The position numbers and the translations under genes were made by a program. 20,000 bases of DNA, taken from contig NW_026948141.1 of assembly GCF_963921235.1 (NCBI RefSeq), forward strand, positions 235,061 through 255,060, given 5' to 3'. This DNA is from Mobula hypostoma. Taxonomy: Eukaryota. This document shows, one piece after another, positions 350-19,725 of this stretch (the stretch's first letter is position 1; each line of letters starts with the position of its first letter). The notes under the pieces are model-generated. The model searched no databases. It was not told the DNA's origin and saw only the letters and a list, made by a program, of their open reading frames with translations.

Positions 350-2364
350 TTTTTGTGTTAGCCATGGAGGTCATTGTGAGGGCTGCAGAATCAGTGGGAC
401 CAGGTGTCGCACTTGATGGCAGAGGGGAGTTACCACCAATATGAGCATTCATGGACGATTTCACCCTTTTGGGTCCCAGCAACGGAGGCAGTGGAAAATG
501 TACTATCTAGACTCGAGGAGCTAATGGATTGGGGAAGAATGAAGTTCAAGACCAAGAAGTCAAGGAGCCTTGTTCTTAGGAGAGGAAAGCTGGTTGACTT
601 TCATTTCACCCTTTGTGGAGAGGAGATTCCATCCATTCAGGACCAACCAGTTAAGAACCAGAGGAGCTGAGAGTCACCAAGAGGGTTCAAGAGACAGGAG
701 GACAGATCAGCAGAGGTCTGATGTCTGTTGACAAGCGTGGCTTGCCTGGCAAGTTGAAGTTGTGCTTGTAGTACAGACTGATGCCACAGATAATGTGGCC
801 ATTAACTGTCTGTGAAGTGGCAATGTCCCACGTTGAGGCAATGGAACGGAAGATCAACAAGTATGTGAAGAAGTGGCTTGGAGTACTGAGCAGCCTCACC
901 AATGTTGCAATCCACAATAGCCAGACAAAGCTTACCATCCCAGTGCAATCCCTTGTTGAGAAAGTCAAGGTAGCTAAGGTAAGATCATTCTTGATGCTTC
1001 GAGACTCAAAAGACCCTGTCATCAAGAACGCCCAGCCGGATGTGAGATCAGGCAGGAAGTGGTCAGCCCATGTAGCAGTTGATGAGGCAGAGTCTAGATT
1101 GAAGCACAAGGAGATGGTTGGGGCTACCCAGCTAAGCCGCCAGGGACTTGGATGGACAACCCACAAGTGGTGGTCATCTTCCACAGGTAAGGAGCTTGTA
1201 ACACAAGAAGTACGAGAGGTAGAAGAGGAGAAGAGGTTAGCTAAAACAGCTGGCCTGGCCAAACAAGGGGCTTGGACCTGGTGGGAAAGTGTTGAACAAC
1301 GACATCCATCTTGGAATGTTCTGTGGCAGATGGAACCACTCCGCATTTCTTTTCCACACAGAGCAATGTACGATCTGCTCCCAACACCTGCCAACCTCAG
1401 CACCTGGTATGAAGATAAGACAGACAGGTGTGCTGCTTGTGGCGAGAAGGGAAAATATTTTGAGTCCATGCAGAGTCAATCTTTCCAGTGGCATGTACAC
1501 TTGGAGACATAACAACGTTCTCAAAATTGTAACAGAAGTGGGTGAGCAGAGAGTACTTCAGCACAACTTATCTCATGCCCCATGCTGCACAGAACATCGC
1601 ATATCATTTGTGAAAGAAGGCTCCAAGTCAAGGGTGTACAGCGCAGGCTCACGATCAAGCATACTTTCCTCAGCCAATGATTGGTGTGTCAAGGCTGACC
1701 TGGATGGGAAAGGCAGTTTCCCGGAGCAAATAGCTTTCACCACATTGCGTCCAGATATAATCGTATGGTCTGACACCAGTAGAGAAGTGGTTATTGGTGA
1801 ACTCACAGTCCCCTGGGAAGACAACATCGATGAAGCCCATGAGCGCAAGTTAACCAAGTATGCAGAGTCAAGATCAGAGTGCAGAGACAGAGGGTGGAAG
1901 GTCTCATGCTATCCATTCGAAGTAGGCTGCCATGGGTTTATTGCGTTCACTTTCCAGAAGTGGCTGCGTGACCTTGGCTTCACTAGAAGAGAGATCAAGT
2001 CAACCAGCAGGGCTGTAGCTGAGGCAGCAGAGACAGGACCAGCATGGGTGTGGACCAAGTATGTCCAGAGGGGCAGAGAGTCGGACAGTGTATCCATCTT
2101 TTGCAAACCCTTCAGTAGTTGCATAGACACCTGAAGAGTAGACTATCTGTTGGATGGAAGCAACCAACAACTCTGATAGAGGCAGATGCCAAGTTTTTAA
2201 GCTCACCAGTGGGAGGTGGTGCTTTAGCACTGCTGATCCACCACCTCGAGGGAGCCTTGATCATAAGCGGGCCGAAACTCCTGAAGACAGGTGGCAGATC
2301 AACTGATGATCCCTCTGGTGATAGCACAGGACAGTTAACATCTTAGTCCACGTGTATTTTGTAA
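350..2364 (+). mobile_element. 5'-truncated non-LTR retrotransposon with restriction-like endonuclease (Hero/R2-group), including 3' UTR
   Basis: Domain order RT C-terminal half, zinc knuckle, then RLE. Starts abruptly inside RT (FVLAMEVIVRAA). About 230 nt of 3' UTR. Flanked on both sides by PLE-type sequence. Confidence 0.85.
352..2134 (+). pseudogene. Disrupted RT / Zn-knuckle / RLE polyprotein of the Hero-like element
   Basis: FMDD catalytic motif at 448-459, preceded by an in-frame TGA at 442-444. RMKFKTKKSRSLVL in ORF 404-670. KKWLG and YDLLPTPANL...CAACGEKG in ORF 781-1512. NILSPC...YTWRHN and RPDIIVW...ELTVPWE...KLTKY...PFEVGCHG in ORF 1289-2134. Several frameshifts; the His of the CCHC knuckle is lost at the ~1450 break. 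Confidence 0.85.
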
Positions 2365-4084: not shown

Positions 4085-5684
4085 ATAGAAAAACTACAGA
4101 ACCATAGAAACTGCAGCACAGAAACAGGCCCTTTGGCCCTTCTTGGCTGTGCCGAACCATTTTCTGCCTAGTCCCACTGACCTGCACACAGACCATATCC
4201 CTCCATACACCTCCCATCCATGTATCTGTCCAATTTATTCTTAAATGTTAAAAAAGAACCCGCATTTACCACCTCATCTGGCAGCTCATTCCATACTCCC
4301 ACCACTCTCTGTGTGAAGAAGCGCCCCCCCAATGTTCCCTTTAAACTTTTCCCCCCTCACCCTTAACCCATGTCCTCTGGTTTTTTTCTCCCCTTGCCTC
4401 AGTGGAAAAAGCCTGCTTGCATTCACTCTATCTATACCCATCATAATTTTATATACCTCTATCAAATCTCCCCTCATTCTTCTACGCTCCAGGGAATAAA
4501 GTCCTAACCTATTCAACCTTTCTCTGTAACTGAGTTTCTCAAGTCCCGGCAACATCCTTGTAAACCTTCTCTGCACTCTTTCAACCTTATTTATATCCTT
4601 CCTGTAATTTGGTGACCAAAACTGAACACAATACTCCAGATCCGGCCTCACCAGTGCCTTATACAACCTCATCATAACATTCCAGCTCTTATACTCAATA
4701 CTTCGATTAATAAAGGCCAATGTACCAAAAGCTCTCTTTACGACCCTATCTACCTGTGACGACACCTTTAGGGAATTTTGTATCTGTATTCCCAGATCCC
4801 TCTGTTCCACTGCACTCCTCAGTGCCTTACCATTAACCCTGTATGTTCTACCTTGGTTTGTCCTTCCAACGTGCAATACCTCACACTTGTCAGTATTAAA
4901 CTCCATCTGCCATTTTTCAGCCCAATTTTCCAGCTGGTCCAAGTCCCTCTGCAGGCTCTGAAAACCTTCCTCATTGTCTACTACACCTCCAATCTTTGTA
5001 TCATCAGCAAACTTGCTGATCCAATTTACCACATTATCATCCAGATCATTGATATAGATGACAAATAACAATGGACCCAGCACTGATCCCTGTGGCACAC
5101 CACTAGTCACAGGCCTCCACTCAGAGAAGCAATTCTCTACCACCACTCTCTGGCTTCTTCCATCGAGCCAATGTCCAATCCAATTTACCACCTCTTCATG
5201 TATACCTAGCGACTGAATTTTCCTAACTAACCTCCCATGCGGGACCTTGTCAAAGGCCTTACTGAAGTCCATGTAGACAATATCCACTGCCTTCCCTTCA
5301 TCCACTTTCCTGGTAACCTCCTTGAAAAACTCCAATAGATTGGTCAAACATGACCTACCATGCACAAAGCCATGTTGACTCTCCCTAATAAGCCCTTGTC
5401 TATCCAAATGCTTGTAGATTCTGTCTCTTAGTACTCCCTCCAATAACTTACCTACTACTGACGTTAAACTCACCGGCCTATAATTTCCCGGATTACTTTT
5501 CGATCCTTTTTTAAACAACGGAACAACATGAGCCACTCTCCAATCCTCCGGCACCCCACCTGTAGACAGCGACATTTTAAATATTTCTGCCAGGGCCCCC
5601 GCAATTTCAACACCAGTCTCCTTCAAGGTCCGAGGGAACACCCTGTCAGGTCCCGGGGATTTATCCACTTTAATTTTCCTCAAG
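4085..5684 (-). mobile_element. Young 5'-truncated CR1 LINE with 3' UTR and short-repeat tail
   Basis: Long RT ORF, 3' UTR at ~4110-4200 and a catagaa-type repeated tail at 4084-4110. Candidate target-site duplication ATAGA at 4085-4089 and 5685-5689. Confidence 0.93.
4286..5683 (-). pseudogene. CR1 ORF2 reverse transcriptase, N-terminally truncated (no endonuclease) with a C-terminal frameshift
   Basis: KSPGPD, NYRPVSLTS, QHGF, YMDFSKAFDKVPH, GVPQGSVLGP, KFADDTK and RRMRGDLIEVYK are all in one frame. The expected FFTQRVVGVWNELP continues in another frame after ~4325. There is no real start codon. Confidence 0.92.
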
Positions 5685-5771
5685 ATAGAGTAGAGTTGTC
5701 AAACATAAGTTGGAATCAAGACCAACACAACAGCATGAACCAAGTTGCCCATCCATTGCTGTTCTATTCTC

Positions 5772-8700
5772 CTACTTAAGCCGATTACCAGCAACAGCTC
5801 ACCACAGTCCTCTATCCTGGGCCGATTGAAGATTGATCAACCCCTGTGGGTTCTGATTTCACCACGTGACTTCATATGCCTTCCAGGCAAAGACCTTTTC
5901 TCTCCGAAGGATGAGATCTTTGGAGCTTCTGTTTCTGTTTCTGTAGCTCTGGGTTTTTACAGGATGGGGTTGCTAGTGCCATGTTCAACTCTCCTCCTTT
6001 CACAGCCGGGTTTGGGACTGTCCATGGGGAGTTCATACCCGTTCCTCCTCCTTTCACAGCCAGGTTTGGGACTGTCCATGGGGAGTTCATACCCAACCCT
6101 CCTCCTTTCACAGCCGGGTTTGGGACTGTCCTTGGGGAGTTCATACCCAACCATCCTCCTTTCACAGCCGGATTTGGGACTTTCCATGGGGAGTTCATAC
6201 CTGTTCCTCCTCCTTTCACAGCCGGGTTTGGGACTGTCCATGGGGAGTTCATACCCGACCCTTCTCCTTTCACAGCCGGGTTTGGGACTGTCCATGGGGA
6301 GTTCATACCCGTTCCTCCTCGTTTCACAGCCAGGTTTGGGACTGTCCATGGGGAGTTCATACCCGTTCCTCCTCCTGTCACAGCCAGGTTTGGGACTGTC
6401 CATGGGGAGTTCATACCCAACCCTCCTCCTTTCACAGCCAGGTTTGGGACTGTCCTTGGGGAGTTCATACCCAACCATCCTCCTTTCACAGCCGGATTTG
6501 GGACTTTCCATGGGGAGTTCATACCTGTTCCTCCTCCTTTCACAGCCGGGTTTGGGACTGTCCATGGGGAGTTCATACCCGACCCTTCTCCTTTCACAGC
6601 CAGGTTTGGGACTGTCCATGGGGAGTTCATACCCAACCCTCCTCCTTTCACAGCCAGGTTTGGGACTGTCCATGGGGTTCATACCCCCTCCTCCTTTCAC
6701 AGCCGGGTTTGGGACTGTTCATGGGGAGTTCATACCCAACCCTCCTCCTTTCACAGCCGGTTTGGACTGTAGGTCAGCCGTTTGGGACTCATGGGGAGTT
6801 CATACCCGTTCCTCCTCCTTTCACAGCCGGGTTTGGGACTGTCCATGGGGAGTTCATACCCAACCCTCCTCCTTTCACGTTCATACCCGTTCCTCCTCCT
6901 TTCACAGCCGGGTTTGGGACTGTCCATGGGGAGTTCATACCCAACCCTCCTCCTTTCACAGCCGGGTTTGGGACTGTCCATGGGGAGTTCATACCCAACC
7001 CTCCTCCTTTCACAGCCGGGTTTGGGACTGTCCATGGGGAGTTCATACCCAACCCTCCTCCTTTCACAGCCGGGTTTGGGACTGTCCATGGGGAGTTCAT
7101 ACCCAACCCTCCTCCTTTCACAGCCGGGTTTGGGACTGTCCATGGGGAGTTCATACCCGTTCCTCCTCCTTTCACAGCCGGGTTTGGGACTGTCCAGGGG
7201 AGTTCATACCCGTTCCTCCTCCTTTCACAGCCGGGTTTGGGACTGTCCATGGGGAGTTCATACCCAACCCTCCTCCTTTCACAGCCGGGTTTGGGACTGT
7301 CCATGGGGAGTTCATACCCAACCCTCCTCCTTTCACAGCCGGGTTTGGGACTGTCCATGGGGAGTTCATACCCAACCCTCCTCCTTTCACAGCCGGGTTT
7401 GGGACTGTCCATGGGGAGTTCATACCCAACCCTCCTCCTTTCACAGCCAGGTTTGGGACTGTCCATGGGGAGTTCATACCCGTTCCTCCTCCTTTCACAG
7501 CCGAGTTTGGGACTGTCGATGGGGAGTTCATACCCGTTCCTCCTCCTTTCACAGCCGGGTTTGGGACTGTCCATGGGGAGTTCATACCCGTTCCTCCTCC
7601 TTTCACAGCCAGGTTTGGGACTGTCCATGGGGAGTTCATACCCGTTCCTCCTCCTTTCACAGCCGGGTTTGGGACTGTCGATGGGGAGTTCATACCCGTT
7701 CCTCCTCCTTTCACAGCCGGGTTTGGGACTGTCCATGCAGAGTTCATACCCGTTCCTCCTCCTTTCACAGCCGGGTTTGGGACTGTCCATGGGGAGTTCA
7801 TACCCGTTCCTCCTCCTTTCACAGCCGGGTTTGGGACTGTCGATGGGGAGTTCATACCCGTTCCTCCTCCTTTCACAGCCGGGTTTGGGACTGTCCATGC
7901 GGAGTTCATACCCAACCCTCCTCCTTTCACAGCCAGGTTTGGGACTGTCCATGGGGAGTTCATACCCGTTCCTCCTCCTTTCACAGCCGTGTTTGTGACT
8001 GTCGATGGGGAGTTCATACCCGTTCCTCCTCCTTTCACAGCCGGGTTTGGGACTGTCCATGCGGAGTTCATACCCAACCCTCCTCCTTTCACAGCCGGGA
8101 TTGGGACTGTCCATGGGGAGTTCATACCCGTTCCTCCTCCTTTCACAGCCGGGTTTGGGACTGTCCATGGGGAGTTCATACCCAACTCTCCTCCTTTCAC
8201 AGCCGGGTTTGGGACTGTCCATGGGGAGTTCATACCCGTTCCTCCTCCTTTCACAGCCGGGTTTGGGACTGTCCATGGGGAGTTCATACCTGTTCCTCCT
8301 CCTTTCACAGCCGGGTTTGGGACTGTCCATGGGGAGTTCATACCCGTTCCTCCTCCTTTCACAGCCGGGTTTGGGACTGTCCATGGGGAGTTCATACCCG
8401 TTCCTCCTCCTTTCACAGCCGGGTTTGGGACTGTCGATGGGGAGTTCATACCCGTTCCTCCTCCTTTCACAGCCGGGTTTGGGACTGTCCATGCGGAGTT
8501 CATACCCAACCCTCCTCCTTTCACAGCCGGGTTTGGGACTGTCCATGGGGAGTTCATACCCGTTCCTCCTCCTTTCACAGCCGGGTTTGGGACTGTCCAT
8601 GGGGAGTTCATACCCGTTCCTCCTCCTTTCACAGCCGGGTTTGGGACTGTCCATGGGGAGTTCATACCCAACCCTCCTCCTTTCACAGCCGGATTTGGGA

Positions 8701-11700
8701 TTTTCCATGGGGAGTTCATACCTGTTCCTCCTCCTTTCACAGCCGGGTTTGGGTCTGTCCATGGGGAGTTCATACCCGACCCTTCTCCTTTCACAGCCAG
8801 GTTTGGGACTGTCCATGGGGAGTTCATACCCAAGCCTCCTCCTTTCACAGCCAGGTTTGGGACTGTCCATGGGGAGTTCATACCCAACCCTCCTCCTTTC
8901 ACAGCCGGGTTTGTGACTGTCCATGGGGAGTTCATACCCAACCCTCCTCCTTTCACAGCCGGGTTTGGGACTGTCCATGGGGAGTTCATACCCAACCCTC
9001 CTCCTTTCACAGCCGGGTTTGGGACTGTCCATGGGGAGTTCATACCCGTTCCTCCTCCTTTCACAGCCGGGTTTGGGACTGTCCATGGGGAGTTCATACC
9101 CGTTCCTCCTCCTTTCACAGCCGGGTTTGGGACTGTCCATGGGGAGTTCATACCCGTTCCTCCTCCTTTCACAGCCGGGTTTGGGACTGTCCATGGGGAG
9201 TTCATACCCAACCCTCCTCCTTTCACAGCCGGGTTTGGGACTGTCCATGGGGAGTTCATACCCAACCCTCCTCCTTTCACAGCCGGGTTTGGGACTGTCC
9301 ATGGGGAGTTCATACCCGTTCCTCCTCCTTTCACAGCCAGGTTTGGGACTGTCCATGGGGAGTTCATACCCGTTCCTCCTCCTTTCACAGCCGGGTTTGG
9401 GACTGTCGATGGGGAGTTCATACCCGTTCCTCCTCCTTTCACAGCCGGGTTTGGGACTGTCCATGCGGAGTTCATACCCGTTCCTCCTCCTTTCACAGCC
9501 GGGTTTGGGACTGTCCATGGGGAGTTCATACCCGTTCCTCCTCCTTTCACAGCCGGGTTTGGGACTGTCCATGCGGAGTTCATACCCAACCCTCCTCCTT
9601 TCACAGCCGGGTTTGGGACTGTCCATGGGGAGTTCATACCCGTTCCTCCTCCTTTCACAGCCGGGTTTGGGACTGTCCATGGGGAGTTCATACCCAACTC
9701 TCCTCCTTTCACAGCCGGGTTTGGGACTGTCCATGGGGAGTTCATACCCGTTCCTCCTCCTTTCACAGCCGGGTTTGGGACTGTCCATGGGGAGTTCATA
9801 CCTGTTCCTCCTCCTTTCACAGCCGGGTTTGGGACTGTCCATGGGGAGTTCATACCCGTTCCTCCTCCTTTCACAGCCGGGTTTGGGACTGTCCATGGGG
9901 AGTTCATACCCGTTCCTCCTCCTTTCACAGCCGGGTTTGGGACTGTCGATGGGGAGTTCATACCCGTTCCTCCTCCTTTCACAGCCGGGTTTGGGACTGT
10001 CCATGCGGAGTTCATACCCAACCCTCCTCCTTTCACAGCCGGGTTTGGGACTGTCCATGGGGAGTTCATACCCGTTCCTCCTCCTTTCACAGCCGGGTTT
10101 GGGACTGTCGATGGGGAGTTCATACCCGTTCCTCCTCCTTTCACAGCCGGGTTTGGGACTGTCCATGCGGAGTTCATACCCAACCCTCCTCCTTTCACAG
10201 CCGGGTTTGGGACTGTCCATGGGGAGTTCATACCCGTTCCTCCTCCTTTCACAGCCGGGTTTGGGACTGTCCATGGGGAGTTCATACCCAACTCTCCTCC
10301 TTTCACAGCCGGGTTTGGGACTGTCCATGGGGAGTTCATACCCGTTCCTCCTCCTTTCACAGCCGGGTTTGGGACTGTCCATGGGGAGTTCATACCTGTT
10401 CCTCCTCCTTTCACAGCCGGGTTTGGGACTGTCCATGGGGAGTTCATACCCGTTCCTCCTCCTTTCACAGCCGGGTTTGGGACTGTCCATGGGGAGTTCA
10501 TACCCGTTCCTCCTCCTTTCACAGTCAGGTTTGGGACTGTCCATGGGGAGTTCATACCCGTTCCTCCACCTTTCACAGCCGGGTTTGGGACTGTCGATGG
10601 GGAGTTCATACCCGTTCCTCCTCCTTTCACAGCCGGGTTTGGGACTGTCCATGCGGAGTTCATACCCGTTCCTCCTCCTTTCACAGCCGGGTTTGGGACT
10701 GTCCATGGGGAGTTCATACCCGTTCCTCCTCCTTTCACAGCCGGGTTTGGGACTGTCCATGGGGAGTTCATACCCGTTCCTCCTCCTTTCACAGCCGGGT
10801 TTGGGACTGTCCATGGGGAGTTCATACCCAACCCTCCTCCTTTCACAGCCGGGTTTGGGACTGTCCATGGGGAGTTCATACCCGTTCCTCCTCCTTTCAC
10901 AGCCGGGTTTGGGACTGTCCATGGGGAGTTCATACCCGTTCCTCCTCCTTTCACAGCCGGGTTTGGGACTGTCCATGGGGAGTTCATACCCAACCCTCCT
11001 CCTTTCACAGCTGGGTTTGGGACTGTCCATGGGGAGTTCATACCCAACCCTCCTCCTTTCACAGCCGGGTTTGGGACTGTCCATGGGGAGTTCATACCCG
11101 TTCCTCCTCCTTTCACAGCCGAGTTTGGGACTGTCCATGTGGAGTTCATACCCAACCCTCCTCCTTTCACAGCTGGGTTTGGGACTGTCCATGGGGAGTT
11201 CATACCCAACCCTCCTCCTTTCACAGCCGGGTTTGGGACTGTCCATGGGGAGTTCATACCCAACTCTCCTCCTTTCACAGCCGGGTTTGGGACTGTCCAT
11301 GGGGAGTTCATACCCGTTCCTCCTCCTTTCACAGCCGAGTTTGGGACTGTCCATGTGGGAGTTCTATCCGTTCATACCCAACCCTCCTCCTTTCACAGCT
11401 GGGTTTGGGACTGTCCATGGGGAGTTCATACCCAACCCTCCTCCTTTCACAGCCGGGTTTGGGACTGTCCATGGGGAGTTCATACCAAACCCTCCTCCTT
11501 TCACAGCCGGGTTTGGGACTGTCCATGGGGAGTTCATACCCGTTCCTCCTCCTTTCACAGCCGGGTTTGGGACTGTCCATGTGGAGTTCATACACGTTCC
11601 TCCTCCTTTCACAGCTGGGTTTGGGACTGTCCATGGGGAGTTCATACCCAACCCTCCTCCTTTCACAGCCGGGTTTGGGACTGTCCATGGGGAGTTCATA

Positions 11701-14700
11701 CCCAACGATCCTCCTTTCACAGCCGGGTTTGGGACTGTCCATGCGGAGTTCATACCCGTTCCTCCTCGTTTCACAGCCGGGTTTGGGACTGTCCATGGGG
11801 AGTTCATACCCGTTCCTCTTCCTTTCACAGCCGGGTTTGGGACTGTCCATGGGGAGTTCATACCCAACCCTCCTCCTTTCACAGCCGGGTTTGGGACTGT
11901 CCATGGGGAGTTCATACCCGTTCCTCCTCCTTTCACAGCCGGGTTTGGGACTGTCCACGGGGAGTTCATACCCGTTCCTCCTCCTTTCACAGCCGGGTTT
12001 GGGACTGTCCATGGGGAGTTCATACCCAACCTTCCTCCTTTCACAGCCGGGTTTGGGACTGTCCATGGGGAGTTCATACCCAACCCTCCTCCTTTCACAG
12101 CCGGGTTTGGGACTGTCCATGGGGAGTTCATACCCGTTCCTCCTCCTTTCACAGCCGGGTTTGGGACTGTCCATGGGGAGTTCATACCCGTTCCTCCTCC
12201 TTTCACAGCCGGGTTTGGGACTGTCGATGGGGAGTTCATACCCGTTCCTCCTCCTTTCACAGCCGGGTTTGGGACTGTCCATGCGGAGTTCATACCCGTT
12301 CCTCCTCCTTTCACAGCCGGGTTTGGGACTGTCCATGGGGAGTTCATACCCGTTCCTCCTCCTTTCACAGCCGGGTTTGGGACTGTCGATGGGGAGTTCA
12401 TACCCGTTCCTCCTCCTTTCACAGCCGGGTTTGGGACTGTCCATGCGGAGTTCATACCCAACCCTCCTCCTTTCACAGCCGGGTTTGGGACTGTCCATGG
12501 GGAGTTCATACCCGTTCCTCCTCCTTTCACAGCCGGGTTTGGGACTGTCCATGGGGAGTTCATACCCAACTCTCCTCCTTTCACAGCCGGGTTTGGGACT
12601 GTCCATGGGGAGTTCATACCCGTTCCTCCTCCTTTCACAGCCGGGTTTGGGACTGTCCATGGGGAGTTCATACCTGTTCCTCCTCCTTTCACAGCCGGGT
12701 TTGGGACTGTCCGTGGGGAGTTCATACCCGTTCCTCCTCCTTTCACAGCCGGGTTTGGGACTGTCCATGGGGAGTTCATACCCGTTCCTCCTCCTTTCAC
12801 AGCCGGGTTTGGGACTGTCGATGGGGAGTTCATACCCGTTCTGCCTCCTTTCACAGCCGGGTTTGGGACTGTCCATGCGGAGTTCATACCCAACCCTCCT
12901 CCTTTCACAGCCGGGTTTGGGACTGTCCATGGGGAGTTCATACCCGTTCCTCCTCCTTTCACAGCCGGGTTTGGGACTGTCGATGGGGAGTTCATACCCG
13001 TTCCTCCTCCTTTCACAGCCGGGTTTGGGACTGTCCATGCGGAGTTCATACCCAACCCTCCTCCTTTCACAGCCGGGTTTGGGACTGTCCATGGGGAGTT
13101 CATACCCGTTCCTCCTCCTTTCACAGCCGGGTTTGGGACTGTCCATGGGGAGTTCATACCTGTTCCTCCTCCTTTCACAGCCGGGTTTGGGACTGTCGAT
13201 GGGGAGTTCATACCCGTTCCTCCTCCTTTCACAGCCGGGTTTGTGACTGTCCATGCGGAGTTCATACCCAACCCTCCTCCTTTCACAGCCGGGTTTGGGA
13301 CTGTCCATGGGGAGTTCATACCCGTTCCTCCTCCTTTCACAGCCGGGTTTGGGACTGTCCATGGGGAGTTCATACCCAACTCTCCTCCTTTCACAGCCGG
13401 GTTTGGGACTGTCCATGGGGAGTTCATACCCGTTCCTCCTCCTTTCACAGCCGGGTTTGGGACTGTCCATGGGGAGTTCATACCTGTTCCTCCTCCTTTC
13501 ACAGCCGGGTTTGGGACTGTCCATGGGGAGTTCATACCCGTTCCTCCTCCTTTCACAGCCGGGTTTGGGACTGTCCATGGGGAGTTCATACCCGTTCCTC
13601 CTCCTTTCACAGCCAGGTTTGGGACTGTCCATGGGGAGTTCATACCCGTTCCTCCTCCTTTCACAGCCGGGTTTGGGACTGTCGATGGGGAGTTCATACC
13701 CAACTCTCCTCCTTTCACAGCCAGGTTTGGGACTGTCCTTGGGGAGTTCATACCCGTTCCTCCTCCTTTCACAGCCGGGTTTGGGACTGTCCATGGGGAG
13801 TTCATACCCAACCCTCCTCCTTTCACAGCCGGGTTTGGGACTGTCCATGGGGAGTTCATACCCAACTCTCCTCCTTTCACAGCCGGGTTTGGGACTGTCC
13901 ATGGGGAGTTCATACCCAACCCTCCTCCTTTCACAGCCGGGTTTGGGACTGTCCTTGGGGAGTTCATACCCGTTCCTCCTCCTTTCACAGCCGGGTTTGG
14001 GACTGTCCATGCGGAGTTCATACCCGTTCCTCCTCCTTTCACAGCCGGGTTTGGGACTGTCCATGGGGAGTTCATACCCGTTCCTCCTCCTTTCACAGCC
14101 GGGGTGGGACTGTCGATGGGGAGTTCATACCCGTTCCTCCTCCTTTCACAGCTGGGTTTGGGACTGTCCATGCGGAGTTCATACCCAACCCTCCTCCTTT
14201 CACAGCCGGGTTTGGGACTTTCCATGGGGAGTTCATACCCGTTCCTCCTCCTTTCACAGCGGAGTTTGGGACTGTCCATGGGGAGTTCATACCCGTTCCT
14301 CCGCCTTTCACAGCCGGGTTTGGGACTGTCCATGGGGAGTTCATACCCAACCCTACTCCTTTCACAGCTGGGTTTGGGACTGTCCATGGGGAGTTCATAC
14401 CCGTTCCTCCTCCTTTCACAGCCGGGTTTGGGACTGTCCATGGGGAGTTCATACCCGTTCCTCCTCCTTTCACAGCCGAGTTTGGGACTGTCCATGTGGA
14501 GTTCATACACGTTCCTCCTCCTTTCACAGCTGGGTTTGGGACTATCCATGGGGAGTTCATACCCAACCCTCCTCCTTTCACAGCTGGGTTTGGGACTGTC
14601 CATGGGGAGTTCATACCCAACCCTCCTCCTTTCACAGCCGGGTTTGGGACTGTCCATGGGGAGTTCATACCAAACCCTCCTCCTTTCACAGCCGGGTTTG

Positions 14701-17700
14701 GGACTGTCCATGGGGAGTTCATACCCGTTCCTCCTCCTTTCACAGCCGGGTTTGGGACTGTCCATGTGGAGTTCATACACGTTCCTCCTCCTTTCACAGC
14801 TGGGTTTGGGACTGTCCATGGGGAGTTCATACCCAACCCTCCTCCTTTCACAGCTGGGTTTGGGACTGTCCATGGGGAGTTCATACCCAACGATCCTCCT
14901 TTCACAGCCGGGTTTGGGACTGTCCATGCGGAGTTCATACCCGTTCCTCCTCGTTTCACAGCCGGGTTTGGGACTGTCCATGGGGAGTTCATACCCGTTC
15001 CTCTTCCTTTCACAGCCGGCTTTGGGACTGTCCATGGGGAGTTCATACCCAACCCTCCTCCTTTCACAGCTCGGTTTGGGACTGTCCATGGGGAGTTCAT
15101 ACCCAACCCTCCACCTTTCACAGCCGGGTTTGGGACTGTCCATGGGGAGTTCATACCCGTTCCTCCTCCTTTCACAGCCGGGTTTGGGACTGTCCATGGG
15201 GAGTTCATACCCGTTCCTCCTCCTTTCACAGCCGGGTTTGGGACTGTCCATGGGGAGTTCATACCCAACCCTCCTCCTTTCACAGCCGGGTTTGGGACTG
15301 TCCATGGGGAGTTCATACCCGTTCCTCCTCCTTTCACAGCCGGGTTTGGGACTGTCCATGGGGAGTTCATACCCAACTCTCCTCCTTTCACAGCCGGGTT
15401 TGGGACTGTCCATGGGGAGTTCATACCCGTTCCTCCTCCTTTCACAGCCGGGTTTGGGACTGTCCATGGGGAGTTCATACCTGTTCCTCCTCCTTTCACA
15501 GCCGGGTTTGGGACTGTCCGTGGGGAGTTCATACCCGTTCCTCCTCCTTTCACAGCCGGGTTTGGGACTGTCCATGGGGAGTTCATACCCGTTCCTCCTC
15601 CTTTCACAGCCGGGTTTGGGACTGTCGATGGGGAGTTCATACCCGTTCTGCCTCCTTTCACAGCCGGGTTTGGGACTGTCCATGGGGAGTTCATACCCAA
15701 CCCTCCTCCTTTCACAGCCGGGTTTGGGACTGTCCATGGGGAGTTCATACCCGTTCCTCCTCCTTTCACAGCCGGGTTTGGGACTGTCCATGCGGAGTTC
15801 ATACCCGTTCCTCCTCCTTTCACAGCCGGGTTTGGGACTGTCCATGGGGAGTTCATACCCGTTCCTCCTCCTTTCACAGCCGGGTTTGGGACTGTCATGG
15901 GGAGTTCATACCCGTTCCTCCTCCTTTCACAGCCGGGTTTGGGACTGTCCATGCGGAGTTCATACCCAACCCTCCTCCTTTCACAGCCGGGTTTGGGACT
16001 GTCCATGGGGAGTTCATACCCGTTCCTCCTCCTTTCACAGCCGGGTTTGGGACTGTCCATGGGGAGTTCATACCCAACTCCTCCTCCTTTCACAGCCGGG
16101 TTTGGGACTGTCCATGGGGAGTTCATACCCGTTCCTCCTCCTTTCACAGCCGGGTTTGGGACTGTCCATGGGGAGTTCATACCCGTTCCTCCTCCTTTCA
16201 CAGCCGGGTTTGGGACTGTCCATGGGGAGTTCATACCCGTTCCTCCTCCTTTCACAGCCGGGTTTGGGACTGTCCATGGGGAGTTCATACCCGTTCCTCC
16301 TCCTTTCACAGCCGGGTTTGGGACTGTCCATGGGGAGTTCATACCCGTTCCTCCTCCTTTCACAGCCGGGTTTGGGACTGTCCATGGGGAGTTCATACCC
16401 AACCCTCCTCCTTTCACAGCCGGGTTTGGGACTGTCCATGGGGAGTTCATACCCGTTCCTCCTCCTTTCACAGCCGGGTTTGGGACTGTCCATGGGGAGT
16501 TCATACCCGTTCCTCCTCCTTTCACAGCCGGGTTTGGGACTGTCCATGGGGAGTTCATACCCAACCCTCCTCCTTTCACAGCCGGGTTTGGGACTGTCCA
16601 TGGGGAGTTCATACCCGTTCCTCCTCCTTTCACAGCCGGGTTTGGGACTGTCCATGGGGAGTTCATACCCGTTCCTCCTCCTTTCACAGCCGGGTTTGGG
16701 ACTGTCGATGGGGAGTTCATACCCGTTCCTCCTCCTTTCACAGCCGGGTTTGGGACTGTCCATGGGGAGTTCATACCCGTTCCTCCTCCTTTCACAGCCG
16801 GGTTTGGGACTGTCCATGGGGAGTTCATACCCGTTCCTCCTCCTTTCACAGCCGGGTTTGGGACTGTCCATGGGGAGTTCATACCCAACTCCTCCTCCTT
16901 TCACAGCCGGGTTTGGGACTGTCCATGGGGAGTTCATACCCGTTCCTCCTCCTTTCACAGCCGGGTTTGGGACTGTCCATGGGGAGTTCATACCCGTTCC
17001 TCCTCCTTTCACAGCCGGGTTTGGGACTGTCCATGGGGAGTTCATACCCGTTCCTCCTCCTTTCACAGCCGGGTTTGGGACTGTCCATGGGGAGTTCATA
17101 CCCGTTCCTCCTCCTTTCACAGCCGGGTTTGGGACTGTCCATGGGGAGTTCATACCCGTTCCTCCTCCTTTCACAGCCGGGTTTGGGACTGTCCATGGGG
17201 AGTTCATACCCAACTCTCCTCCTTTCACAGCCGGGTTTGGGACTGTCCATGGGGAGTTCATACCCGTTCCTCCTCCTTTCACAGCCGGGTTTGGGACTGT
17301 CCATGGGGAGTTCATACCCAACCCTCCTCCTTTCACAGCCGGGTTTGGGACTGTCCATGGGGAGTTCATACCCAACCCTCCTCCTTTCACAGCCGGGTTT
17401 GGGACTGTCCATGGGGAGTTCATACCCAACCCTCCTCCTTTCACAGCCGGGTTTGGGACTGTCCATGGGGAGTTCATACCCGTTCCTCCTCCTTTCACAG
17501 CCGGGTTTGGGACTGTCCATGGGGAGTTCATACCCGTTCCTCCTCCTTTCACAGCCGGGTTTGGGACTGTCCATGGGGAGTTCATACCCGTTCCTCCTCC
17601 TTTCACAGCCGGGTTTGGGACTGTCCATGGGGAGTTCATACCCGTTCCTCCTCCTTTCACAGCCGGGTTTGGGACTGTCCATGGGGAGTTCATACCCAAC

Positions 17701-19477
17701 CCTCCTCCTTTCACAGCCGGGTTTGGGACTGTCCATGGGGAGTTCATACCCGTTCCTCCTCCTTTCACAGCCGGGTTTGGGACTGTCCATGGGGAGTTCA
17801 TACCCGTTCCTCCTCCTTTCACAGCCGGGTTTGGGACTGTCCATGGGGAGTTCATACCCGTTCCTCCTCCTTTCACAGCCGGGTTTGGGACTGTCCATGG
17901 GGAGTTCATACCCAACTCTCCTCCTTTCACAGCCGGGTTAGTGACTGTCCATGGGGAGTTCATACACGTTCCTCCTCCTTTCACAGCCGGGTTTGGGACT
18001 GTCCATGGGGAGTTCATACCCGTTCCTCCTCCTTTCACAGCCGGGTTTGGGACTGTCCATGGGGAGTTCATACCCGTTCCTCCTCCTTTCACAGCCGGGT
18101 TTGGGACTGTCCATGGGGAGTTCATACCCATCCCTCCTCCTTTCACAGCCGGGTTTGGGACTGTCCATGGGGAGTTCATACCCGTTCCTCCTCCTTTCAC
18201 AGCCGGGTTTGGGACTGTCCATGGGGAGTTCATACCCGTTCCTCCTCCTTTCACAGCCGGGTTTGGGACTGTCCATGGGGAGTTCATACCCGTTCCTCCT
18301 CCTTTCACAGCCGGGTTTGGGACTGTCCATGGGGAGTTCATACCCGTTCCTCCTCCTTTCACAGCCGGGTTTGGGACTGTCCATGGGGAGTTCATACCCG
18401 TTCCTCCTCCTTTCACAGCCGGGTTTGGGACTGTCCATGGGGAGTTCATACCCGTTCCTCCTCCTTTCACAGCCGGGTTTGGGACTGTCCATGGGGAGTT
18501 CATACCCGTTCCTCCTCCTTTCACAGCCGGGTTTGGGACTGTCCATGGGGAGTTCATACCCGTTCCTCCTCCTTTCACAGCCGGGTTTGGGACTGTCCAT
18601 GGGGAGTTCATATCCCAACGTTCCTCCTCCTTTCACAGCCGGGTTTGGGACTGTCCATGGGGAGTTCATACCCAACCCTCCTCCTTTCACAGCCGGGTTT
18701 GGGACTGTCCATGGGGAGTTCATACCCGTTCCTCCTCCTTTCACAGCCGGGTTTGGGACTGTCCATGGGGAGTTCATACCCGTTCCTCCTCCTTTCACAG
18801 CCGGGTTTGGGACTGTCCATGGGGAGTTCATACCCGTTCCTCCTCCTTTCACAGCCGGGTTTGGGACTGTCCATGGGGAGTTCATACCCGTTCCTCCTCC
18901 TTTCACAGCCGGGTTTGGGACTGTCCATGGGGAGTTCATACCCGTTCCTCCTCCTTTCACAGCCGGGTTTGGGACTGTCCATGGGGAGTTCATACCCGTT
19001 CCTCCTCCTTTCACAGCCGGGTTTGGGACTGTCCATGGGGAGTTCATACCCAACCCTCCTCCTTTCACAGCCGGGTTTGGGACTGTCCATGGGGAGTTCA
19101 TACCCGTTCCTCCTCCTTTCACAGCCGGGTTTGGGACTGTCCATGGGGAGTTCATACCCGTTCCTCCTCCTTTCACAGCCGGGTTTGGGACTGTCCATGG
19201 GGAGTTCATACCCGTTCCTCCTCCTTTCACAGCCGGGTTTGGGACTGTCCATGGGGAGTTCATACCCGTTCCTCCTCCTTTCACAGCCGGGTTTGGGACT
19301 GTCCATGGGGAGTTCATACCCGTTCCTCCTCCTTTCACAGCCGGGTTTGGGACTGTCCATGGGGAGTTCATACCCAACCCTCCTCCTTTCACAGCCGGGT
19401 TTGGGACTGTCCATGGGGAGTTCATACCCGTTCCTCCTCCTTTCACAGCCGGGTTTGGGACTGTCCATGCTGGAGTT
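5772..19477 (-). mobile_element. Short non-autonomous bipartite RTE-derived element (5' UTR head fused to 3' tail) whose first 54 nt are tandemly amplified
   Basis: Downstream of the array on the minus strand: catggcactagcaaccccatcctgtaaaaacccagagctac (resembles RTE 5' UTR), then ggcccaggatagaggactgtggtgagctgttg (AQDRGLW, resembles RTE ORF C-terminus), then gcttaagtag (TAAG-type tail). Family assignment is from recall. Confidence 0.65.
5980..19477. repeat. 54-bp tandem array (minisatellite/satellite), about 250 copies, 13.5 kb
   Basis: Unit cataccc(gtt/aac)cctcctcctttcacagccgggtttgggactgtccatggggagtt. First unit 5980-6033, last unit 19423-19477. 13498 bp divided by 54 is about 250. Confidence 0.99.
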
Positions 19478-19485
19478 ACTGTTGC
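19423..19485 (-). ncRNA. Twister ribozyme-like sequence (terminal copy; all array units are homologous), degenerate
   Basis: Minus strand UAA-CUCC-AGC-AUGG-ACAG-UCCCAAAC-CCGG-CUGUGAAA-GGAG-GAGG, compared with the rice twister as recalled, UAA-CACU-GCC-AAUG-CCGG-UCCCAAGC-CCGG-AUAAA-AGUG-GAGG. P2 covaries (CUCC/GGAG). T2 and P4 are damaged. Confidence 0.7.
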
Positions 19486-19517
19486 TGTATGTTCTATGTG
19501 AAACTTGGAGGAATGAT

Positions 19518-19725
19518 GAATGCTTTGGAGCTTTTCAAAGAGGTAGGTGAAGGGATAGAGGAAGGTAGGGCAGTAGATAGGACATGGAACACTACAGCAC
19601 AGGAACAGGCCCCTCAGCCCACGATATTGTTGAGAAACAAGTGATCAATTTATGCCTCCATTTTCCTCACATTCGACTTGATGAGCCAAGGGGCCTGTTT
19701 CAGCACTGTACAATTCTCTGTCTAT
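19518..19725. mobile_element. Small CR1 remnants in both orientations
   Basis: 19518-19578 (+) reads LELFKEVGEGIEEGRAVD, similar to LEFFKEVTRKVDEGKAVD in the 4286-5683 ORF. 19580-19632 (-) acagcacaggaacaggcccctcagccc resembles the tail at 4112-4140. 19675-19725 (+) is tail-like (gatgagccaaggggcctgttt). Confidence 0.65.

Follow-up and report, generated by a model that had tools for sequence, protein, structure and literature searches.

We describe here a tandem array of about 13.5 kb, made of about 250 copies of a 54-base unit, in a 20,000-nucleotide stretch of the Mobula hypostoma genome (assembly GCF_963921235.1, contig NW_026948141.1, positions 235,061 to 255,060, forward strand). This stretch is called the window, and all positions are counted from its first letter unless a locus is named. 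We consider, with a probability of about 0.78, that the array is a DNA satellite formed by tandem amplification of the first 54–55 nt of one non-long-terminal-repeat retroelement insertion, and that the parent family of this insertion is headed by a type-P1 twister ribozyme module without helix P3. An earlier note made from the letters alone (the original prediction) had proposed a twister-derived satellite. This origin is supported: the array runs on into a copy of its parent element, and the parent module matches the twister core block by block. The physical continuity between array and parent is stronger evidence than any covariance-model score.

Anatomy of the array

Tandem Repeats Finder (TRF) reports a single large tandem array at 5991–19477 with a period of 54, 249.8 copies, 94% matches, 0% indels and a score of 22330, which confirms the array of about 250 copies originally placed at 5980–19477. 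The real limits are slightly wider than the TRF call: read in its minus-strand sense, the array starts at plus-strand position 19477, and its last module ends near 5979. The flanks have a GC content of about 0.45, and the array one of 0.56–0.57. With AACTCC as the anchor, 248 unit starts are found in the minus-strand sense, and 232 of the 247 intervals between them are exactly 54 nt. TRF, this anchoring and the block counts given below describe an array of about 248 units at 5979–19477 (minus strand).

The minus-strand majority consensus of the 232 clean units is AACTCCCCATGGACAGTCCCAAACCCGGCTGTGAAAGGAGGAGG(AAC/GTT)GGGTATG, and it agrees position by position with the unit string of the original prediction. 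At unit positions 45–47, the AAC form is found in about 66% of the clean units and the GTT form in about 34%. There are 51 distinct 54-mers among the array units, the two commonest being present in 88 and 40 copies. Multi-unit blocks recur, and the array has no fixed higher-order repeat period.

Continuity with one element insertion

Each unit corresponds to positions 1–55 of the parent element, that is, the twister module, 5 further bases and the element's ATG, minus one base. In the minus sense the array starts as ...ACAGCAACAGT|AACTCCAGCATGG..., where the first unit (19423–19477) has the parental length of 55 nt and carries private substitutions. This unit begins T|AAC beside unique flank, and its first base, twister position A+1, is the 5' end of the original insertion. 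At the other end, the last module (5979–6033, minus strand), with private changes in its 3' half (GGAGGAGAGTTGAACATGG), runs unbroken into an element body of about 240 bp. The body and tail (5763–5978, minus strand) belong to a short, internally deleted derivative of a long interspersed nuclear element (LINE) and end ...GGCTTAAGTAGGAGAATAGAA at 5763. The body is 75–86% identical to those at loci L005–L009 over 139–243 nt. An alignment to dispersed copies of the parent had been suggested earlier; in it, the last unit passes into the body of a dispersed element of about 290 bp.

The insertion is flanked by 11 bases on each side, at 19478–19488 (minus sense ACAGCAACAGT, its last T being twister position −1) and at 5752–5762 (minus sense ACAGCAATGGA). 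Compared from 19488 to 19478 and from 5762 to 5752, they match at 8 of 11 positions, including the first 7 in a row. Read as a target-site duplication, the pair encloses array, body and tail. Within the array, every internal unit junction joins position 54/55 straight to A+1. Given the continuity of array and body and the target-site duplication, the array is therefore the 5'-terminal 54–55 nt of one insertion, repeated about 248 times.

An open reading frame (ORF) of 4603 amino acids on the plus strand (5739–19550) and long minus-strand ORFs run across the array. A coding role was rejected for them; they are an artefact, because the 54-nt unit amounts to 18 codons without stops. On the minus strand, the element's ATG stays in frame in each array unit (MNSPWTVPNPAVKGGGTG repeated).

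The parent family and its twister module

Relatives of the element were sought in the 3.48-Gb assembly (200 contigs). The genome searches scored the best candidates only, so that all counts given here are lower bounds and no census. The Rfam twister-P1 model (RF03160) has a gathering score of 67.2 bits. With this model, the best 62 of 198,712 candidates were scored and gave 9 matches of about 55 nt, at 39.0–46.9 bits and with a best E-value of 3.7e-6. The matched loci read (T)AACTCCGCCATGGACGGTCCCAAGCCCGGCTGCGAAAGGAGGAGGGTTGGGCATGGGG..., with unrelated upstream flanks and about 250–290 bp shared downstream. A DNA search with one element copy gave 41 scored matches (the best of 5324 candidates) on many contigs, at about 82–89% identity, and 10 of 20 further dispersed loci match RF03160 at 25–40 bits. 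The short element is about 290 bp long and ends ...GGGCTTAAGAAGAA.

The covariance alignment of the parent copies fits every conserved twister block (UAAC:CCGC, CGGUCCCAAGCCCG and AAAGG:GGAGGG). The parent module has a 5-base linker where P3 would stand, and 3 extra bases after P4. Each core block (UAA, P2, GC, P4, UCCCAAGC, AAA, P2' and GAGGG) is the commonest state at its place, in 18–33 of 38 copies. The module thus has all conserved blocks of a type-P1 twister, in which P3 is optional. According to passages of PMC6154101, P0, P3 and P5 are optional in twisters, P3 being present in 78% of them, and P1 is dispensable for cleavage; mutation of conserved nucleotides, pseudoknots, P2 or P4, on the other hand, strongly lowers activity.

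Element 5' ends at the predicted cleavage site

Homology among the dispersed copies starts exactly at A+1, with A at +1 in 36 of 39 rows (38 distinct loci). At position −1, the 29 copies picked by similarity have T in 11, A in 9, C in 6 and G in 3; in five of these 29 the first bases have diverged and the ends are less certain. In contigs of four public runs (four organism codes), loose ends read CGGAGTTA and then pass into unrelated sequence. Diverged element copies, the satellite-specific AAC variant and the parental variant are present in all four. Element copies begin at the predicted cleavage site, with the flank giving N−1 and the P1 5' strand.

The twister in the parent family most likely acts as it does in the Schistosoma element Perere-3. 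A read-through transcript would self-cleave between N−1 and A+1, and cleavage would set the 5' end of the RNA to be reverse-transcribed and expose the ATG four bases past the ribozyme. It is the exact 5' ends of the copies that make this step most likely here, by analogy with Schistosoma, in which alone it has been demonstrated experimentally.

An autonomous LINE partner

In the short element, the ATG lies four bases 3' of the end of the ribozyme model and opens MGLATPSHKNPELQK..., and the 3' end reads ...QDRGLWRAAVGGLCPSRGDGLKKK before the tail. Among the 30 loci with the short element's C-terminal peptide, 27 carry a twister module 108–232 nt upstream and are therefore of the short form. One of the other three, on contig C45, is a LINE. 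Its 5' end, T|AACTCTGCCATGGAGAGTCCCAAG... (T|AACTCTGCC...), aligns to short-element positions 1–143, and its 3' end matches positions 145–247. It carries endonuclease-like (GDFNA) and reverse transcriptase (RT)-like (FADNIAHLS) frames, broken by a CR1-type insertion. Because the LINE matches both segments, the short element is an internal-deletion derivative of it.

The C45 locus, the one copy from which the LINE is described, has what an autonomous partner would need: an apurinic/apyrimidinic endonuclease and an RT behind the ribozyme, and a 3' end in common with the short form. The layout and the 5' sequence shared with Perere-3 suggest that the LINE belongs to the RTE clade, and a protein-atlas comparison of the C45 LINE was uninformative. 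The family consists of an endonuclease- and RT-bearing LINE plus its far more numerous internal-deletion derivative of about 290 bp.

An ORF at 4286–5698 (minus strand) was considered as the element's own ORF and rejected, since the target-site duplication and tail end at 5763 and the LINE type is different. This open frame of 470 amino acids encodes an RT (Pfam RVT_1, E-value 1e-36) of CR1 type, whose nearest clusters are mostly from Chordata, a weak sign of a vertebrate host. It is located immediately outside the target-site duplication and has no relation to the element that bears the twister.

The ribozyme core in the array units

In a permissive cmscan, RF03160 was the best of 4227 families for the minus-strand unit. 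Over 5900–7100 (1.2 kb), 14 of 26 permissive matches are to twister-P1, at 15.4–23.6 bits and a best E-value of 0.026. Over the whole array (13.7 kb), the figure is 122 of 124, at 18.5–24.6 bits and an E-value of 0.15. The alignments cover the entire model with P3 deleted. Taken alone, these scores are only suggestive.

The block counts show which parts of the core are kept. All 232 clean units have the cleavage-site AA and the P2 strand CUCC; P2' GGAG is present in 224 and GAGG in 210, the full GAGGG being found in only 58 and GAGGA in 151. The units thus have the N|AA, the 4-bp P2 and the GAGG(G) strand after P2' that mark type P1. The 3' strand of P4, CCG, occurs in 204 of 232, and on the 5' strand CGG occurs in none and CAG in 227. 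In place of the P4 helix that closes the 8-nt L4 of a twister, the CAG strand gives a helix of C-G, A.C and G-C. L4 reads UCCCAAGC in no unit and UCCCAAAC in 222; L2 is GC in 19 units and CC in 209. The T2 pseudoknot, in which GC of L2 pairs with GC at the end of L4, is therefore not formed by the array units. Compared with intact parent modules, all units have lost one GCC base, and 227 of 232 have ACAG for ACGG. These counts bear out the earlier list of retained and damaged twister features. In the minimum-energy fold of the unit, a P2-like helix is kept, and a shifted 6-bp hairpin (ACAGUC/GGCUGU) takes up L4 bases.

Because T2 is lost and P4 is mismatched, the units are predicted not to cleave, and they are probably catalytically dead. 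The changes in the amplified unit occur singly in dispersed copies as decay; the founder was therefore already decayed, and amplification needed no active ribozyme. The original prediction had held most copies to be inactive. Its sequence part stands, as none of the 232 units keeps CGG in P4 or AAGC in L4, and the catalytic part is predicted from these losses.

It is very improbable that the units still self-cleave and that array transcripts are cut to 54-nt monomers, possibly circularised, as in hammerhead satellites and retrozymes. Such activity would be consistent with the near invariance of A+1/A+2, P2, GAGG, the T1 partners and the AAA block, and with a fold that has a P2-like helix and a 6-bp hairpin at the P4 position. 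It would also fit the dispensability of P1 stated in PMC6154101 and the greater uniformity of the array units than of the bodies attached to them. However, this uniformity is expected from satellite homogenisation without selection, and some dispersed copies show the identical mutations as sporadic decay. None of the 232 units has the L4 G needed for pairing in T2, GC in L2 is found in only 19, and CAG replaces CGG in 227. The hairpin ACAGUC/GGCUGU, moreover, sequesters L4 bases required for T1, and the units score 18.5–24.6 bits in the covariance model versus 39–47 for the parents.

Weighing the twister origin

Several points weigh against the proposed history of the satellite and its parent family. 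At Rfam gathering thresholds, nothing is reported in the whole window. The comparison with the twister-P1 model proposed earlier gave matches for both the unit (at most 24.6 bits) and the parent (best E-value 3.7e-6), and all of them, array units and parent copies, stay below the gathering score of 67.2 bits. The outcome named beforehand as a refutation, no match for either of the two, thus did not occur. In the parent, this shortfall is due to the deletion of P3 and the flank-derived P1. In nested folding, neither units nor a dimer nor two parent copies differed significantly in energy from shuffles (z from −1.57 to +0.60). All core blocks are intact in only 6 of 38 dispersed copies, including those at L004 and L006, in a sample partly picked by covariance score. 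The 5 + 5 extra bases around P4 in the parent (CAUGG ... CUGYG) could extend P4 and so rival the active fold. The exact 5' end of the copies could instead stem from an internal promoter that starts at that base. Finally, Pfam gives no match or a weak one (Exo_endo_phos_2, E-value 0.0074) on the decayed LINE frames.

A chance resemblance, with the satellite unrelated to any ribozyme, would fit covariance scores that all lie below the curated threshold and unit E-values of modest size (0.026 in 1.2 kb; 0.15 in 13.7 kb). This explanation is already contradicted, because the array runs on into an element with a 5' module that reaches genome-wide significance (E-value 3.7e-6). The parent module fits every conserved twister block, its copies begin at the predicted cleavage site, and it shares about 45 bases with the published, experimentally active Perere-3 twisters.

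The satellite at other loci and its probable spread

Four array units match at least 19 places outside the window, with 27 further matches beyond those listed. Among the listed matches, 12 lie on C45 between 0.85 and 4.6 Mb (92–98% identity), and one each on C91, C22, C12, C50, C55, C18 and C67 (71–93% identity). Eleven of these arrays were compared, with periods of 53, 54 or 58 bp and 3.7 to 154 copies. Together with the array in the window, these make 12 array loci, all with unrelated 5' flanks. In 11 of the 12, the array adjoins an element body on its sense 3' side; the exception, L051, ends in unrelated sequence. The arrays in the window, on C45 and on C91 share both the AAC and the GTT variants. 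Their commonest units are 87–100% identical, and their bodies are 71–86% identical and of two structural subtypes. In four of these six arrays, which make up the young group, the unit at the outer edge still has the parental spacing of 55 nt together with private changes, and the inner units are of 54 nt.

These comparisons are most simply explained if element copies that were already in place and had diverged gained or exchanged the satellite by way of their homologous 5' modules, for which ectopic conversion, unequal exchange or circular DNA are candidate mechanisms. It is improbable that the arrays instead came to their loci with a retrotransposing master element in which a multi-unit 5' array was already present. 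Such a master would account for the order of flank, units and body at 11 of the 12 array loci, with flanks that are all different, and for arrays that start mid-unit like 5'-truncated insertions (L042, L044, L047). However, near-identical arrays sit on bodies that are only 71–86% identical and of two structural subtypes, and the 55-nt private outermost units in four of six young-group arrays fit resident edge modules.

In the main reading, amplification of a single insertion at the DNA level, the founder copy was already decayed, with P4 changed from ACGG to ACAG, L4/T2 from AAGC to AAAC, and one GCC base lost. Growth and homogenisation of the array would then be ordinary satellite dynamics, that is, unequal exchange and block duplication. 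The satellite would have spread or been homogenised between loci, with resident 5' modules serving as homology.

A different array shows that the module may be amplified more than once. The 58-bp array at L044 (G000:C55:78200000-78203400; locus positions 1490–1878) has 6.7 copies of the same module, and its units keep GCC/TAACTCTGCC and contain about 9 non-element bases each. It is therefore a separate, independent amplification of the twister module. Among 68 dispersed loci, a multi-module 5' end was found at one, with the second module behind an unrelated spacer of 27 bases; a recurrent multi-module 5' end as a trait of the family was accordingly rejected.

These data bear on how the first duplication took place. 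It is doubtful that it occurred at the RNA level in the course of retrotransposition, with RT reaching A+1, switching back to the template near position 55 and recopying the module, followed by growth at the DNA level. Such a switch would explain why unit junctions join 54/55 to A+1 and why the array has the 5' terminus of the element as its outer edge, within the target-site duplication. The duplicated segment has its left breakpoint on the cleavage site to the base, which by chance would happen in about 1 of 55 cases, and the 54/55-nt arrays and the diverged trimer L045 are in the same phase. This common phase, however, can be explained by one shared origin and then counts as a single coincidence. 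Nor is switching regular at insertion, since only 1 of 68 loci has a second module, with 27 unrelated bases between, and the independent 58-bp array on C55, with its roughly 9 non-element bases, resembles plain DNA-level duplication.

A wider proposal, which we regard as unlikely, would make the satellite a by-product of ribozyme-defined retrotransposition: an RT switch at the self-cleaved 5'-OH A+1 would have seeded the repeat, and the array would then have colonised the 5' modules of other copies. In a bolder extension, some units or other arrays would still cleave and release 54-nt RNAs.

Two further relatives were observed. L040 (G000:C22:115014300-115024299) holds an 8-kb, 153-copy satellite relative with a period of 53 bp, and at one end, at its positions 9371–9766, there is a short stretch in the opposite orientation, in which the units still have AAGC in L4. 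L045 (G000:C18:4586600-4589800) has, at positions 1535–1697, three strongly diverged tandem modules in 55|1 phase before an element body; it is an old trimer.

Comparison with known systems

That twisters occur at the 5' ends of RTE-type retrotransposons, as the original prediction held, is stated in print (PMC8501958 and PMC7761336). In Liu et al. 2021 (PMC8501958), variants cleave in vitro and in reporter constructs, translation downstream is made possible by cleavage, and the 5' strand of P1 comes from target-site duplications that directly adjoin the cleavage site. The sequences in Table 1 and Supplementary Document 1 of that study, from Schistosoma, arowana and Sinocyclocheilus, read CTCCGCC-P3-(G)CCGGTCCCAAGCCCGG-(A/G)TAAAGGAGGAGGGTTGGGCATGGGG; other variants come from further teleosts and two snakes.

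The parent element is like Perere-3 in that a twister stands at the extreme 5' end of a LINE with endonuclease and RT, the target site abuts the cleavage site, and the flank gives the P1 5' strand. Both have CUCC/GC/..CGGUCCCAAGCCCGG../AAAGGAGGAGGGUUGGGCAUGGGG and an ATG after the ribozyme. The post-ribozyme GCATGGGG is common to the parent and to the Schistosoma, arowana and Sinocyclocheilus entries. Because it shares these strings, GCATGGGG beyond the ribozyme among them, the parent is a relative of this family and not a mere motif match. Unlike Perere-3, the parent has no P3 (CAUGGA instead) and has 3 bases inserted after P4; six strings diagnostic of the P3-less form are absent from the supplement of Liu et al. 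2021 (PMC8501958). The commonest form here is the internal-deletion derivative of about 290 bp, the module of one copy became a 13.5-kb satellite, and cleavage is only predicted.

In the same supplement, the Ictalurus punctatus entry, from a catfish, seems to be without P3, and it has 2.5 copies of a 19-base segment just ahead of the L4 region on the 5' side. Short tandem duplication in twister modules is therefore also found elsewhere.

According to a passage of de la Pena et al. 2020 (PMC7761336), which refers to work in preparation, twisters that are truncated yet still catalytically competent are conserved at the 5' ends of RTE-superfamily retrotransposons. The twister described here has the same position and the same proposed role, that is, 5' processing of read-through transcripts and translation initiation. 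It differs in having a satellite derivative, which that passage does not mention, and in that its RTE clade is suggested by layout and 5' sequence.

Among ribozyme-bearing repeats, hammerhead satellites and tandem repeats like short interspersed nuclear elements (SINEs) are described in passages of PMC6765202 and PMC7761336, for example, newt satellite 2, Schistosoma Sm-alpha, Dolichopoda pDo500 and the metazoan retrozymes. The array resembles them in being tandem, with one small-ribozyme module per unit and a link to a retroelement. The hammerhead satellites described there have units of 150–500 nt, active hammerheads, and self-cleaved or circular RNAs. Here, by contrast, the ribozyme is of the twister class, the 54-nt unit consists of little more than the module, and no unit has an unmutated core. 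The analogy drawn in the original prediction holds for the architecture; self-cleaving transcripts are not expected.

It is well known that satellites can arise from parts of transposable elements, and mouse L1 has tandem 5' monomers. The array shares with these cases the amplification of a short internal or terminal segment and the tie between arrays and dispersed copies. It is unlike them in that a ribozyme module was amplified, one that starts with its first base at the RNA cleavage site.

Significance

Full-text literature searches returned no title or abstract describing a twister-derived satellite or a twister-headed SINE-like element, and the passages of reviews and recent papers that deal with ribozyme satellites name hammerhead satellites only. 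Twister-headed RTE-type elements and satellites derived from transposable elements are already known; the satellite of a bare twister module and the P3-less short derivative behind it would be new forms of these. The array would be the first known case of satellite DNA that arose from a twister, a counterpart of the hammerhead satellites.

The 5' twisters of RTE-type retrotransposons have been studied experimentally only in Schistosoma. The family described here, with thousands of copies in a large genome, is headed by a P3-less relative of them. Copies that start to the base at the predicted cleavage site extend the evidence that ribozyme processing defines the 5' ends of retroelements. The locus is, in addition, a clean case of the birth of a satellite, in which the founder, the target-site duplication, the resident edge units and the sister arrays can still be read. 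A single feature could signal something mechanistically new: the unit boundary coincides with the site of RNA cleavage. The importance of the satellite is limited by the probable loss of activity in its units, which makes a relic more likely than a functioning RNA device.

Other observations

Two overlapping open frames of 246 and 297 amino acids at 772–2134 (plus strand) are without a Pfam match and are probably what is left of another mobile element. At 2512–2552 there is a (GT)n microsatellite of about 20 copies. Outside the window, a long near-perfect palindrome stands beside a dispersed element copy (L025, positions 425–537). It matches the Rfam family Plastid-psbJ-4 on both strands at 36.5 and 32.7 bits, below the threshold of 55.2 bits, and is probably an unrelated inverted-repeat element.

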